Below, piece by piece: positions 47,911 through 55,252 of a stretch of DNA of 64,000 nucleotides (positions are counted from its first letter, which is position 1; each line of letters opens with the position of its first letter). A program made the translations under genes and the position numbers. The stretch covers positions 21,869 through 85,868 of the forward strand of contig MHDC01000040.1 of the NCBI GenBank assembly GCA_001803415.1. The letters are read 5' to 3'. The notes beneath the pieces are model-generated. The model did no database searches. It worked only from the letters and a program-made list of their open reading frames with translations, and was not told the origin of the DNA. This stretch comes from Microgenomates group bacterium RBG_16_45_19. Its GTDB lineage: Bacteria > Patescibacteriota > Microgenomatia > UBA1400 > RBG-16-45-19.

Positions 47911-49881
47911 GTGAATATGCGCTACTTAAAATGCTTTATCAGCCTTACTATACTCGTTCTGGTTTTTCTTGGCAAAACCACCCCGGCTTCGGCCCAAACT
48001 TTAACCTCTTTTACCTTTGACAATTTTGCCTCCGGCAGCAACAAAACTGCCGGTTTACCCTTCAACCTCACCATCACCGCCCGAGATGAAAATGGTGACG
48101 TTTTAACCACCTTCACCGAGACCACCAACCTGACTGACACCACCGGCACTATCTATCCCACCCAAACTCAAAACTTTACCGCTGGCATTTGGTCAGGTCA
48201 AGCCGCCATCTCCGAAGCTCAGAGTAATGTGGTCATTACCGTTAGCTCCGGTTCAGTCGATGACAACTCCGCCAGCTTTATTGTTGATCCCGATAGCCGG
48301 ATCAAATTCTTGGCGGTTATTGCCGGCAACAACCAAACCGGTCAGGTTTATACCCAACTCTCCACCGCCTTTCAAGTCCGCTCCATCGACCCTTACGGCA
48401 ATCCCTTGACCAATTTAGGGGTGAACTTCGCCATTACCAGTGCGCCGCCTAACGCCACCGGTCAAAGTTTAACTAATTACTCGACTACCACCAATAGCTC
48501 CGGTAACGCCACCACCCTCCTAACCCTGGGTCGTAAAACCGGAACTTATATCGTCTCGGCCGCTCTCACCACCGGTGTGGCTACCAGTGTCCCCTTCTTT
48601 GCCACGGCCACTGCCGGTCCGTTAATCTCTCTAGGCTTAAGCCCCGCGGTTGCCGTCGTTCCGGCTGGAGGCTACTTTCCTTTCACCGTCATTGGCTATG
48701 ACAGCTTTAATAACCAAACCAGCGACCCCTCGGTCACTTGGTCGGTTCAAAACGGTGGCGGCACGATTGACAGTATCGGTGTCTTTTACGCTGGCTCTAC
48801 CCTTGGCACCTACATGAACACAGTCAAAGTTCAAACTACTACCATCGGCACCACCGCTACCGTCGCCATCGTTTCGGCTGCGGGTGAAAGCGGTACTGCC
48901 ACCTATAGCGGTGTGCCTCAACCGACACCCTTACCTACTTTAACCCCGGTCCCCACCCCAACTATGGGCCCCGGGGTGCTCTACGACGTTCAAGTCGATC
49001 CCTCAGTCATCTCCGCTCTCACTAACGCCCGCATTCCCATTATCGCCGAAGGTGTCGATATTTTTGGCAATCAGGTTACCGGTGTTAGTTACACCTTCCA
49101 GACCACCGGTGACTTAGGTACCATTGTCCAAACTGGTCCCACCACCGCCATTCTCCAAACTGGCCCCTCCGGCCTAGGTACCGTTACCGTCACCGCTCAA
49201 CAAGGAGCCATCATTCGGACTGCCAATATTGCCGGCAGTATTGGTAACGGCTTGAATCGCCGTCTGGTCATCGAGGACATTCCCAGTCCCCAAAAAGTCG
49301 GCGTTCCCTTTACCATTTCCATTGCCGCCAAAGATACTCAAAACAACTTTGTCACCGATTATGACGGTCCGATTGTTTTGGCCGATACCACCGCCACCAT
49401 CAACCCTTCGGTGGTCCAACCTAATCAAAACGGTATCTGGTATATTCAAGCAGTTATTAACCTCGCCAATCCGGAAGTCACCATCACCGCCGCCGGTGAT
49501 GGCATGGTTGGTGTTTCCAATATCTTTGCGGTCGAGGGTGAGCCGGCTCAAATTCCCGGTTTGGCGGCTTTAGGTTATGGTGGGGGTGGCCTGGGGACTG
49601 TCCTTGGGGCTTCCATCTCAGCCCTCCTCGAAAAAATGCTTTTGACCGAGGACATCAATCGCTATGGGCTCTTTCGTTACCTTGGTGCCGGCTTTGCCGC
49701 TGGTTTGGGCATTTTAGGCGCTTCTATCGGTGGTGGTTTGATGGTTGCCCGGGGTTTAGAAGCCATCGGCCGCAACCCCTACGCTAAATCACGCCTCCAG
49801 CTCAATCTCTATGCCAGCGTCGCCGCTTTCGTCTTCGCCGCCACTTTGGCGGTTGTCGCCTGCTACCTCATCTTAGGTTAA
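47911..49881 (+). CDS. Secreted Ig-like-domain array fused to a C-terminal ATP synthase c-subunit-like hairpin
   Basis: 656 aa. Signal peptide with AxA site (FLGKTTPASA|QT). About five Ig-like modules, including a Big_1-like block NQTGQVYTQLSTAFQVRSIDPYGNPL...SSGNATTLLTLGRKTGTYIV and Big_2-like blocks, with a Pro/Thr linker (PQPTPLPTLTPVPTPT). Tail [67 protein letters not shown] aligns with this genome's AtpE ([46 protein letters not shown]...). Start GTG 47911 or ATG 47917. Confidence 0.8.
   Translation: MNMRYLKCFISLTILVLVFLGKTTPASAQTLTSFTFDNFASGSNKTAGLPFNLTITARDENGDVLTTFTETTNLTDTTGTIYPTQTQNFTAGIWSGQAAISEAQSNVVITVSSGSVDDNSASFIVDPDSRIKFLAVIAGNNQTGQVYTQLSTAFQVRSIDPYGNPLTNLGVNFAITSAPPNATGQSLTNYSTTTNSSGNATTLLTLGRKTGTYIVSAALTTGVATSVPFFATATAGPLISLGLSPAVAVVPAGGYFPFTVIGYDSFNNQTSDPSVTWSVQNGGGTIDSIGVFYAGSTLGTYMNTVKVQTTTIGTTATVAIVSAAGESGTATYSGVPQPTPLPTLTPVPTPTMGPGVLYDVQVDPSVISALTNARIPIIAEGVDIFGNQVTGVSYTFQTTGDLGTIVQTGPTTAILQTGPSGLGTVTVTAQQGAIIRTANIAGSIGNGLNRRLVIEDIPSPQKVGVPFTISIAAKDTQNNFVTDYDGPIVLADTTATINPSVVQPNQNGIWYIQAVINLANPEVTITAAGDGMVGVSNIFAVEGEPAQIPGLAALGYGGGGLGTVLGASISALLEKMLLTEDINRYGLFRYLGAGFAAGLGILGASIGGGLMVARGLEAIGRNPYAKSRLQLNLYASVAAFVFAATLAVVACYLILG
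49678..49878 (+). other. c-subunit-like helical hairpin domain lacking the ion-binding carboxylate
   Basis: Identical loop EAIGRNP. Counting 18 residues after the loop Pro gives Glu in AtpE but Val (GTC 49831-49833) here. Helix 2 has no Asp or Glu at all. Confidence 0.75.
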
Positions 49882-49951
49882 TCCGTTTGCCTTGCGTTCA
49901 CCGCTTTAGCTTGCTACAGTAGAGACAGATTATCAGTCACTCTATCTGCCC

Positions 49952-50470
49952 ATGGATTCTTGGATTGTTTATACTGGCCTAACCGTCGTTTACATCATTA
50001 TTTTGATCATCTATTTCTTCCGTCGCTCCCGTTCTCATGAACGTGAACTCCACCAATTTCTCCAGGTGGCCGAAGATCAACTCAAACACCGCCAAGCCGA
50101 AATCAATCAGGATGCCAAACAAAAAATTTCCAAAGCTTATTCCCTAGTCAAACAGGTCCATGATATCGCCGCCGCTTTTGAAAAACAGGCTCAAACCGAA
50201 TATGACCAAATCGTTGAGGATGCCAAAGTCGAAAGGCAAGAACTAATCGCCAAAACTAAAACTGACATTGCTGATCTGTTTAAACAGGCAGACCGGGAAA
50301 TTGCCGAATATAAAGCCGCCCGTTTTAAAGAAGTCGAACGCAACCTGGTTAAGCTGGTGATGGCGGTGACTCAAAAGGCTTTAGGTAAAAGCCTGTCCAC
50401 CTCTGACCACCGCCAACTGATCCTCAGCGCCCTGGATGAAGTCATTCAGAAACAAAGTCAAAGTCAATAA
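49952..50470 (+). CDS. ATP synthase b-subunit-like stator protein (second set)
   Basis: 172 aa. One N-terminal TM helix (IVYTGLTVVYIIILIIYFF), then a long charged helix with b-like periodicity (AEINQDAKQKISKAY...EYDQIVEDAKVERQELIAKTK). Confidence 0.7.
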   Translation: MDSWIVYTGLTVVYIIILIIYFFRRSRSHERELHQFLQVAEDQLKHRQAEINQDAKQKISKAYSLVKQVHDIAAAFEKQAQTEYDQIVEDAKVERQELIAKTKTDIADLFKQADREIAEYKAARFKEVERNLVKLVMAVTQKALGKSLSTSDHRQLILSALDEVIQKQSQSQ

Positions 50471-50473
50471 TTT

Positions 50474-53566: not shown

Positions 53567-54980
53567 AACCTTACCCTTAAATCCCCAAGCCAAACCCCCA
53601 GCGCTTAAAACCGGCCGGATCACAGCTATTAAAGGCGCGGTGGTTGATGTCCATTTCCCCTTAAGTCTGCCGGACATTTATCATGCTCTCATTGTTCCCC
53701 TTAACCCTCCAGTGACTTTAGAAGTTTACGAACATTTAGCCAGTCACACCGCCCGCTGTCTCTCGATGCAGCCAACTACTGGCCTTAAATTAGGCTTATC
53801 GGTCCAGGATACCGGCGACGTGCTCCATGTGCCCGTTGGCGAACAACTCCTCGGCCGGGTGATCAACGTCTTTGGTCAACCCATCGATCGGGCTGGACCC
53901 ATTAAAACCCTAATGTCCGCCCCGATTCATGTCAAAAGCCCCGGATTTGTGGCCGTTAAAAGCCCCGCCGAAATTATCGAAACCGGCATCAAAGTCATTG
54001 ACTTTTTTACCCCCTTCCTTAAAGGCGGCAAAATCGGTTTCTTTGGTGGTGCCGGTGTTGGTAAAACCCAATTGGTCACCGAAATTATCCATAACACCAC
54101 CATCAAACATGGCACTCGTTCCGTCTTTGGTGGGGTCGGCGAACGTACTCGGGAAGGGACCGACCTTTATCTGACCCTTAAAGAAACCAAAGTCTTAGAC
54201 AATGTCGCCGTGATCTTAGGTCAAATGAATGAATATCCGGCCATGCGTTTTCGCACCCCCCTGACAGCGGTGACCGTTGCCGAATATTTACGCGATTTAA
54301 CCGGTAAAGAAGTCTTGCTCTTTATTGATAACATCTTCCGCTTCATCCAAGCCGGCGCCGAGATTGCCACCGTTCTCGGTCGGATTCCCTCGGAAACCGG
54401 TTACCAATCTACCATTAACTCCGAACTGGGTGAAATCCAGGAACGAATCGTCTCCACTGACAAAGGCTCGATCACTTCCGTTCAAGCCGTCTACGTTCCG
54501 GCTGACGACTTTTCTGATCCGGCCATTCAAGCCGTTTTTTCTCACCTTGATTCCATCGTCGTTTTGTCCCGCAAAATCGCTCAGCAAAAAATTTACCCCG
54601 CCATGGATACCTTAGCTTCCAGCGCCTCTTTGGATAAAACCATCATCGGTGAAGACCACTATCAAGTCCTACGCCAAGTCTTACAAATTTTAGAACGCCA
54701 CAAATCCCTCCAAAACATCATTGCCATTTTGGGAGAAGGGGAGTTATCGGAGTTAGAACGGGTCACCGTCAGTCGGGCTAAAAAATTGATCAAGTTTTTT
54801 TCTCAACCTTTTTTCACCGCCGAGCAATTCACTAATGTACCGGGTAAATATATTGCCCTACCCGACACTATCGCCGGGGCCAAAGCCATTGTTTCCGGTG
54901 AGTATGACGACCTTTCTGACGAAGCTTTTTATATGGTTGGCACGGTGGCTGAGGCCTTGGCCAAAGCCAAAGCCAGTTAG
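53559..54980 (+). CDS. F1-type ATPase beta subunit paralog (second set)
   Basis: Walker [22 protein letters not shown], Walker [23 protein letters not shown]. The DELSEED-equivalent loop reads GELSELE. ATG 53559 (ATGACTAA overlap with the gamma stop, GGAG 4 nt upstream); the track start is 53523. Confidence 0.92.
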
Positions 54981-54982
54981 CT

Positions 54983-55252
54983 ATGCCAGACGAAGTCTTT
55001 AATTTGGTTATAGTTACCCCCGAAACCACTGTCTACGAAGGCCAAGTGGCCAAACTGATTGCCCCCGGCATCTATCAAGACATTGCCATTCTCCCTAACC
55101 ATACTCCGCTTTACGCTCAACTCATCAAAGGCCAGATCCGTTTGACTGATTCGACCGGTCAGGTGGAAACGTTTACCATTGACGGCGGCATCATCAGAGT
55201 CAAACACAATCACGTTTCCGTTATTGTCGGTTTCCACGGTCACTCACCTTAA
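54983..55252 (+). CDS. F1-type ATPase epsilon subunit paralog, beta-sandwich only (second set)
   Basis: 89 aa. LVIVTPETTVYEGQVAKLIAPGIYQDIAILPNHTPL aligns with the AtpC N-domain. The protein ends right after the sandwich, with no C-terminal helical hairpin. Confidence 0.8.
   Translation: MPDEVFNLVIVTPETTVYEGQVAKLIAPGIYQDIAILPNHTPLYAQLIKGQIRLTDSTGQVETFTIDGGIIRVKHNHVSVIVGFHGHSP

Follow-up and report, generated by a model that had tools for sequence, protein, structure and literature searches.

Microgenomates group bacterium RBG_16_45_19, known from a metagenome-assembled genome (MAG), encodes two sets of F-type ATPase genes within the 64,000-nt stretch of DNA analysed here (the window). One is an ordinary atpBEFHAGDC operon (10445–16526, + strand), recognised in an earlier note on this DNA and confirmed by Pfam (ATP-synt_A, 1.3e-41; ATP-synt_C, 1e-18); it lies outside the machine described below and serves as a comparator. 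The other, our subject, is a run of seven co-directional open reading frames (ORFs) on the + strand at 47911–55252, all of them present as the note reported, whose products we call c2, b2, delta2, alpha2, gamma2, beta2 and epsilon2, the suffix marking the second-operon copies. Rotary F-type ATPases are textbook ion-coupled machines and, to our knowledge, the only accepted exceptions are the F1-like ATPases of mycoplasmas, the membrane parts of which are unrecognisable and the mechanism of which is unsolved. The second operon is genuine and conserved; its design, unusually legible, varies the theme of F-type ATPases put to new uses in a way that is apparently undescribed. No earlier description of this architecture was found in the literature searched, the coverage of which was incomplete, making this absence of evidence only.

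Gene content of the second operon

Pfam places five of the seven products firmly in ATP-synthase families: delta2 (50474–51064, +; 196 aa, full-length OSCP/delta; OSCP, 1.5e-14), alpha2 (51067–52692, +; 541 aa, the non-catalytic F1 subunit, with an N-terminal extension; ATP-synt_ab, 2.3e-72, plus ATP-synt_ab_C), gamma2 (52679–53566, +; 295 aa, central stalk; ATP-synt, 4.6e-42), beta2 (53559–54980, +; 473 aa, the catalytic F1 subunit; ATP-synt_ab, 2.3e-69, plus the N and C domains) and epsilon2 (54983–55252, +; 89 aa, the beta-sandwich domain only; ATP-synt_DE_N, 2.2e-18). The c-like and b-like identities are weaker in Pfam than the note implied; they stand with hidden Markov models (HMMs) specific to candidate-phyla-radiation (CPR) bacteria, for both proteins, and with BLASTP, for c2. 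The latter (47911–49881, +) is a 656-aa fusion, listed at NCBI as hypothetical protein A2W24_02250 on an 89.8-kb contig, and contains a c-type transmembrane (TM) hairpin (49660–49878, +; CPR c HMM, 3.5e-14). The b2 product (49952–50470, +; 172 aa) is peripheral-stalk b-like and has a single TM helix at the N-terminus together with a long coiled coil.

The OSCP match of delta2 spans profile positions 18–170 of 172 and makes it the only full-length OSCP in the window. The canonical delta (11990–12280, +) is just 96 aa long, covers only the C-terminal part of the 172-position profile (103–172) and shares 44 nt with the 3' end of atpF; many of the canonical CPR operons showed no delta gene in the interval from b to alpha. 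The b2 protein has no ATP-synt_B match in Pfam, where it also draws a weak FliH match (0.0066), and is matched by the canonical CPR b HMM at 1.4e-11; canonical HMMs were built from ~60 CPR subunits recovered in a metagenome scan. Both b2, including its TM helix, and delta2 are kept in 24 loci, and b2 adjoins c2 and delta2 at all loci checked, apart from small insertions in L004 and L011 (loci are designated by L numbers throughout).

The tight gene spacing described in the note holds for b2/delta2 (3 nt), delta2/alpha2 (2 nt) and beta2/epsilon2 (2 nt), while the 14-nt and 8-nt overlaps around gamma2 arise only with starts at 52679 and 53559, the first in-frame starts being 52646 for gamma2 and 53523 for beta2. 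Promoter and terminator scans yielded background levels only, Rfam detected just two tRNAs over the window, both away from the operon, and the 70-nt c2–b2 spacer folds no better than shuffled sequences. GC content is uniform across the window (0.45–0.52), and the same proteins occur on independent contigs from other samples, grounds on which a chimeric assembly was rejected. All 4-kb bins of the window have a negative GC skew (−0.12 to −0.25), even where genes lie on the minus strand.

Absence of an a-subunit gene

HMM searches in all six frames of the whole window hit an a-subunit at 10445–11260 only, that is, in the canonical operon, bearing out the observation of the note that none lies in or near the second one. 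An a-subunit gene beside the locus in relatives, which the note took as the mark of loss or misassembly here, was likewise found at none of 34 fusion loci (searched by HMM, five of them, added later, by hmmsearch or Pfam tables; the count covers L003, L004, L006–L027 and L107–L115 and leaves out L005). This absence carries weight because the same kind of search recovers the gene where it is expected: as a positive control, phmmer with an a-subunit query located atpB immediately before c in the 79 canonical CPR operons, contig permitting. The control operons (L028–L106) came from a metagenome scan with the pattern EAIGRNPxA (alignment A2), common to canonical CPR c subunits; 79 of the 80 loci that it returned are ordinary atp operons, and these were reused as controls, both for a-subunit detection and for the presence of the c carboxylate, and for the canonical HMMs.

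The c2 fusion protein

The c2 protein starts with a Sec signal peptide (residues 1–28), evident in the sequence from a basic n-region, a hydrophobic core and a cleavage site between ASA and Q, continues with five immunoglobulin (Ig)-like domains (residues 33–542) and ends in the hairpin (residues 584–656). In an AlphaFold2 model built from 30 homologs (mean pLDDT 74), three Ig-like domains, a disordered Pro/Thr-rich linker (324–370) and two more Ig-like domains follow one another, and a Gly-rich linker and a short amphipathic helix stand between the Ig chain and the hairpin. Its Foldseek matches are tandem Ig arrays, among them invasin, FdeC and the S-layer proteins SbsC, EA1 and Sap. Pfam reports Big_1 (1.7e-5) together with ATP-synt_C (PF00137) at 21.2 bits versus a gathering score of 24, and precomputed PF00137 matches are listed for many members of the c2 family. 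The hairpin shares 44% identity over 55 aa with the atpE product of the window (BLASTP, E 7e-12), and its TM1 keeps the Gly-rich packing motif (GLGILGASIGGG). Since both termini of a c subunit face outward, the Ig-like chain of c2 must lie outside the cell.

Helix 2 of the hairpin contains no Asp or Glu, with Ala at the canonical Glu position, and this loss of the ion-binding carboxylate was overlooked by the earlier note. A core acidic residue in helix 2 is present in none of the 121 distinct fusion proteins (≥250 aa) and in 114 of the 129 short c ORFs of CPR bacteria, the other 15 being contig-end fusion fragments or frameshifted; in the window, only the canonical gene (11290–11526) encodes a carboxylate-bearing c. 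The helix-2 carboxylate being absent, ordinary ion coupling is excluded on this ground alone.

The family numbers ~85 full-length c2 cluster representatives with 45–73% identity. Pairwise identity is highest in the cytoplasmic RNP loop (82%), reaches 72% in both TM1 and the membrane-proximal Ig domain and falls to 48–56% in the distal Ig domains. The RQP/RNP loop contacts gamma and epsilon in known enzymes, and the conserved loop of c2, which ends in (Y/F)AK, is by its sequence the counterpart of this loop. Annotation pipelines label fusions of this type 'F0F1 ATP synthase subunit c'.

The F1 head and stalks

The head looks catalytically competent and undecayed, as the note proposed: the alpha and beta motifs that it quoted, including VYVPADD, are found in the translations and are essentially invariant across species. 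In beta2, the GERTREG/Walker B region and YVPADD are invariant (14 of 14), while alpha2 retains the P-loop in 16 of 17 and the Arg finger (SxSRxGG) in 15 of 17 family members. Among PDB sequences, beta2 matches Bacillus F1 beta with 521 bits, the G1 beta of Mycoplasma mobile (9io5_A) with 352 and a type III secretion system (T3SS) ATPase with 137. The best PDB match of gamma2 is an F1 gamma (9itj_G, 1.8e-27), and it scores 507 bits with the type-2 gamma HMM versus 136 with the canonical one. The epsilon2 protein, 85–104 aa long in all 13 family members, has no ATP-synt_DE match in Pfam and is without the C-terminal helical domain.

The alpha and beta phylogenies envisaged in the note set both second-operon copies apart. 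In a neighbour-joining tree rooted with alpha, beta2 forms a clade in 100 of 100 bootstraps, at a mean distance of 0.76 from canonical CPR betas as against 0.39 within the latter; the alpha2 clade is likewise separate from canonical CPR alpha. All type-2 subunits group by themselves, in trees or by HMM, apart from their canonical counterparts, which argues for a separately co-evolving complex. By this evidence, the second operon is best described as an old paralog system and neither a recent nor a decaying duplicate.

Conservation and the wider fusion family

A scan with one genome per species yielded 21 loci. The gene order is kept: SBP, GT-C (−), u212 (−), u178 (−), the seven genes from c2 to epsilon2, GT-C (−) and TrwB-like (−). 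Save for the small insertions in L004 and L011, the block of u178 with c2-b2-delta2 is intact everywhere; L015 and L017 have a different arrangement of the F1 genes. In the Beckwithbacteria-like loci L004, L021, L022, L024, L025, L114 and L115, F1 genes were not seen after u178/c2/b2/delta2 in the sequence at hand. The 2.5-kb c2–b2 insertion of L011 (11932–14457) encodes a protein with signal-peptidase S26 and lamin-tail domains, and small genes of the 23S_rRNA_IVP/bAvd type lie in or beside the operon or the c-fusion in L004 (12622–12999), L108 (5385–5642 and 7782–8231) and L113 (3285–3674). The MAG records of L006, L009–L012, L014–L018, L020, L022, L023, L025 and L026 are titled 'uncultured Pseudomonadales' or 'uncultured Gammaproteobacteria'; these titles appear to be wrong, the locus being clearly of the Patescibacteria type.

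The same seven-gene operon is found in L112, which represents a distant lineage with a fusion of ~27% identity; all of its subunits score higher with type-2 than with canonical HMMs. A word-index search with the 99-aa hairpin alone gave no matches; HMMER with the hairpin against 1.84 billion representatives recovered more large proteins that end in a carboxylate-less c hairpin, with lengths of 616–756, 1386, 2001 and 2653 aa. In the longest (P0137), a signal peptide is combined with NHL-type repeats, FN3 and numerous Ig-like domains; in L107, the fusion is apparently separate from a 1596-aa NHL-repeat protein, the two being joined in P0137. One of the large proteins is annotated as Candidatus Saccharimonadales, and in P0086 (Saccharimonadales), the C-terminus is matched by the c HMM at 7e-11 and a b-like ORF lies downstream. 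The arms of Saccharimonadales relatives reach ~2650 residues.

Stalk-like genes accompany other subfamilies as well. The subfamily-B fusion of L027 is followed by b2-like and delta2-like genes. The D-type loci L005, L107 and L111, of Saccharimonadales and relatives, contain the fusion, giant surface proteins (of Kelch/FN3 types in L005 and L107), MacB-type ABC transporter genes placed between the fusion and the b-/delta-like genes, a b-like ORF and an ORF cut at the locus end, the last being OSCP-like in L107 and L111 and without assignment in L005. At E-type loci, the neighbours are cohesin, dockerin and Big_6/Big_13 surface proteins; proteins of these four kinds cluster with c-fusions of other subfamilies in L108, L110, L112 and L113, which hints at cohesin–dockerin assembled surface complexes. 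A beta-like gene in L110 (1–1087) that seemed highly divergent is actually a normal F-type beta C-terminus with a ~245-aa extension (718 aa in total, cut by the locus end); together with a 62-aa epsilon that comes after it, it lies ~9 kb upstream of the E-type c-fusion.

Flanking genes

Directly upstream of c2, and divergent from it, lies u178 (47334–47870, −), which encodes a cytoplasmic helical protein. It occupies this position in every subfamily-A locus checked with the family HMM, a 188–191-aa ORF lies at the corresponding spot in L114 and L115, and its alignment shows the motif ERFEFF..KA.E..SGDQ..DYxWAL.IRHDQL. The next gene, u212 (46699–47337, −), adjoins u178 in 11 loci. Its product crosses the membrane once (N-in) and has a linker rich in Pro, Ser and Thr as well as a conserved, beta-rich domain of ~110 aa outside the cell; it is, speculatively, a candidate accessory or stator-anchor protein. 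Neither protein has a match in Pfam, and profile searches of PDB sequences gave chance-level matches only.

The operon is bracketed by the only two TMEM260-like genes of the window, both encoding GT-C homologs that exceed the PF11028 cut-off of 24.2 bits: one upstream (44699–46702, −; 3.7e-11, 43.6 bits) and one downstream (55249–57276, −; 6.5e-10, 39.5 bits). The latter has a C-terminal TPR-like region and converges on epsilon2 with a 4-nt overlap, a position conserved in L003, L006 and L008. Ten related loci have one to three TMEM260-like copies beside or inside the operon; in L003, a third copy lies between delta2 and alpha2. In L020, a 9-TM ORF without a Pfam match lies between beta2 and epsilon2, and three more multi-TM neighbours match the TMEM260-like family by HMM; the remaining multi-TM neighbours in relatives have no match or carry TPR repeats, and they vary in position. 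The human TMEM260 enzyme adds O-mannose to Ig-like IPT domains (PMC10214176), which makes glycosylation of c2 a reasonable inference; by analogy, the flanking GT-C enzymes probably O-glycosylate its Ig-like arms or Pro/Thr-rich linker.

Beyond the downstream GT-C gene, a VirD4/TrwB-like coupling-protein ATPase (57279–59477, −; TrwB_AAD_bind and DUF87, with DUF8128 in relatives) is conserved near the operon in L003, L006, L008, L009, L011 and L026. Elsewhere, the window carries fermentative genes: enolase, iPGM, PFOR and ADP-forming acetyl-CoA synthetase.

A probable rotary ATPase without ion coupling

Judged from homology, the operon encodes an alpha3beta3 head, a gamma/epsilon central stalk, a b/delta peripheral stalk and a ring-type c hairpin. 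On balance, we consider it probable that it specifies a second complete F-type rotary ATPase, the membrane sector of which has been turned from an ion turbine into a surface-display rotor. With a c-ring devoid of ion sites and with no subunit a, such a complex could work neither as an ion turbine nor as a pump; an ATP-hydrolysing mechanical machine is best supported because the loop, the head and the peripheral stalk are constrained and fermentative ATP enzymes are encoded. The constraint within c2 appears to fall where a rotor needs it, in the loop, TM1 and the membrane-proximal Ig domain. In keeping with the note, which proposed a rotary machine driven by ATP and recruited for some other purpose, we take its likeliest function to be that of an ATP-driven rotary or torque machine, not coupled to ions, that acts on a probably glycosylated surface array.

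In the mechanism that we propose, a fermentative organism would make ATP by substrate-level phosphorylation, and for that reason the complex would run solely as an ATPase. Hydrolysis would turn gamma/epsilon and the attached c2 ring against a stator of b2 and delta2, passing torque or rotation to a crown of 8–15 Ig-like arms, one for every ring protomer, on the cell surface, so that chemical energy would cross the membrane as mechanical work; u178 and u212 would be conserved accessory proteins. Candidate outputs are host attachment or grappling, surface remodelling and motility.

Several observations weigh against this account. Ring formation by c2 is assumed from homology, and the hairpin has low confidence in the monomer AlphaFold2 model (pLDDT 50–67). 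The stator is the weakest point: the single TM helix of b2 has no evident partner when no a-subunit is present, and such a stator has no evident means of resisting counter-rotation. A dedicated F1 may not accompany c2 everywhere, given the Beckwithbacteria-like loci, and the association with GT-C genes could in part be inherited synteny within one clade. The short epsilon2 was considered as a sign of a dedicated hydrolase and dropped as non-diagnostic, because canonical CPR operons often share it (13 of the 23 canonical epsilons in L028–L106 are equally short, at 76–98 aa, and without the C-terminal inhibitory helices). Possible broken copies also exist, with c2 present as two or three ORFs in L023 (5457–7437) and L024 (9914–11830) and gamma2 split in L006 (14911–15811); these may reflect sequencing errors or local decay.

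The split genes, and the origin of the window from a MAG, could be taken to mean that the operon is a decaying duplicate or an assembly artefact without function. Conservation effectively refutes this: although possible signs of decay of the kind that the earlier note had asked about in orthologous loci do exist at the three loci just named, the operon is intact in the large majority of the 21 species-representative genomes and the proteins form ~85 clusters. A decaying duplicate is ruled out by the conserved motifs together with the old, monophyletic beta2 clade, and the uniform GC content and the independent contigs speak against an artefact. A second alternative dispenses with the rotor, the hairpin serving only as a membrane anchor, perhaps an oligomeric one, for an adhesin- or S-layer-like protein and the F1-like head, together with b/delta, as an ATP-dependent switch or a factor for assembly or export that does not rotate, comparable to the FliH/FliI/FliJ complexes of type III secretion. 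The resemblance of the c2 ectodomain to adhesins and S-layer proteins fits such a role, as do related fusions that contain NHL, FN3 and Ig repeats and reach 2653 aa, the cohesin/dockerin proteins and MacB-type ABC transporters that neighbour other subfamilies, the weak FliH match of b2 and the conserved VirD4/TrwB-like neighbour. However, a heteromeric alpha/beta head with a true gamma for its central cavity and an epsilon is a rotary design and not that of a homo-hexameric export ATPase, beta2 is far closer to F1 beta than to the T3SS ATPase (521 versus 137 bits), the most conserved part of c2 is the very loop that in real rotors contacts gamma and epsilon, and c2 needs no dedicated exporter because it has its own Sec signal peptide. 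We regard a rotorless role as quite improbable.

Two further readings would preserve ion coupling. In a hybrid complex, the canonical a (10445–11260) would be borrowed, or c2 would be mixed with canonical c, and the arms would tether an ordinary synthase or pump at the wall or at a host contact. In favour of this stand the canonical a and c genes of the same genome, the retention by the c2 hairpin of ring-packing glycines and its likeness to atpE, the occurrence of c2-b2-delta2 without adjacent F1 genes in some lineages, which fits part-sharing, and the precedent of V-type and some archaeal rings that include c units without an ion site (PMC9171764). Yet tethering alone requires no full duplicate of alpha, beta, gamma, epsilon, b and delta, the separate grouping of the type-2 subunits argues for a complex of their own, a ring of c2 only would have no ion site, and none of the 34 fusion loci has recruited an a-like gene, all of which leaves the hybrid improbable. 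Still less credible, and in our view very improbable, is a non-canonical coupling in which another multi-TM protein, GT-C-like or unannotated, replaces a while c2 binds ions without the helix-2 carboxylate. Multi-TM proteins do flank or interrupt the operon, and several of those in relatives have no Pfam match; on the other hand, none of the 121 fusions has an acidic residue in TM2, both flanking proteins score above the Pfam threshold for a glycosyltransferase family and the other multi-TM neighbours are not fixed in position.

The surface-display rotor also invites a bolder version, which as a whole we hold to be unlikely: a new prokaryotic rotary surface organelle in which F1 spins a proton-blind c-ring beneath a glycosylated shaft or propeller of 8–15 Ig-domain arms, with which episymbiotic Patescibacteria would move, or would grapple, wind in or drill their hosts. 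If true, this organelle would join the flagellum and the archaellum as the third rotary appendage powered by ATP or ions, and it would supply a missing evolutionary and mechanistic link to the mycoplasma F1-like X0 motors. Even in its plainer form, the surface-display rotor would, with all parts readable, offer a concrete design for turning cytoplasmic ATP hydrolysis into torque outside the cell. The family, conserved in Microgenomatia, extends to Saccharimonadales, an order with relatives that can be cultivated and manipulated genetically, and it bears on how ultra-small episymbionts attach to their hosts and manipulate them. Surveys that require a set of alpha, beta, gamma, a and c (PMC11738941) would not recognise a complete ATPase in this operon.

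Comparison with known systems

The closest parallels are found in mycoplasmas, where the Type 2 G1-ATPase is the gliding motor of M. mobile (PMC3369863, PMC11864180, PMC12994834) and the Type 3 F1-like X0 ATPase, encoded by MMCAP2_0575-0581 in M. mycoides, is needed for MIB-MIP antibody cleavage (PMC12994834, PMC11864180); both types hydrolyse ATP for extracellular work (PMC11864180, PMC12994834). The earlier note drew this comparison aptly and stated correctly that these clusters have no recognisable a, b, c or delta (PMC3369863, PMC12994834). As in the second operon, an extra set of alpha, beta, gamma and epsilon without a recognisable a exists there beside a genuine F1Fo and is thought to hydrolyse ATP for mechanical work on surface proteins. 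The u178 protein is small and cytoplasmic, as is 'Protein 2' of the mycoplasma cluster, and c2 may parallel in architecture the mycoplasma proteins MMCAP2_0577, MSC_0620 and MMOB1650 with their C-terminal helices. Unlike the mycoplasma systems, however, the second operon retains a b-like protein and a full OSCP/delta, and the two C-terminal helices of c2 are a recognisable c hairpin. It has no ORF for the 12-TM 'Protein 1', the flanking multi-TM proteins being TMEM260-like GT-C homologs on the opposite strand, and its hosts are Patescibacteria and not Mollicutes. Moreover, beta2 is an ordinary F-type beta outside the fast-evolving mycoplasma clade, and its score of 521 bits to F1 beta versus 352 to G1 beta argues for an independent origin. 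The mycoplasma literature holds that no equivalent of the F1-like X0 ATPases is known in other bacteria. A phmmer search with the hairpin against the 1.84 billion representatives, which carry no organism names, found no long match outside the Ig-rich fusion family.

Of the eight subunits of canonical F1Fo, seven have homologs in the second operon, which also keeps the tight spacing and, atpB aside, the canonical gene order; it differs in having no a-subunit, no helix-2 carboxylate on c and an exported N-terminal ectodomain of ~550 aa with five Ig-like domains on c2, and all of its subunits fall into separate paralog groups. The N-ATPase of Dibrova et al. (2010) is likewise a second F-type operon alongside the canonical one and is laterally mobile; its operon reportedly reads atpDCQRBEFAG, with a and c that carry full, often Na+-type sites, with AtpQ and AtpR and without delta. 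In contrast, the order here is c-b-delta-alpha-gamma-beta-epsilon, delta is present, and a and the ion site are absent; no unassigned ORF is left in the operon for AtpQ or AtpR, for which dedicated models were not run.

Subunits c/K without ion sites do occur in working rotor rings of V-type and some archaeal A-type enzymes (PMC9171764), but those rings keep at least one site per duplicated subunit as well as subunit a, and here neither is found. The T3SS/flagellar export machinery (FliH/I/J) is set apart by its homo-hexameric FliI-type ATPase, whereas alpha and beta are distinct paralogs in the second operon. Type VII (MacB/FtsEX-like) mechanotransmission ABC systems convert cytoplasmic ATP hydrolysis into extracytoplasmic mechanical work; they belong to an unrelated family, are not rotary and offer a functional analogy only. 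Measured by the defining features of each, the second operon stands apart from canonical F1Fo, the N-ATPases, the mycoplasma clade and the T3SS ATPases alike.

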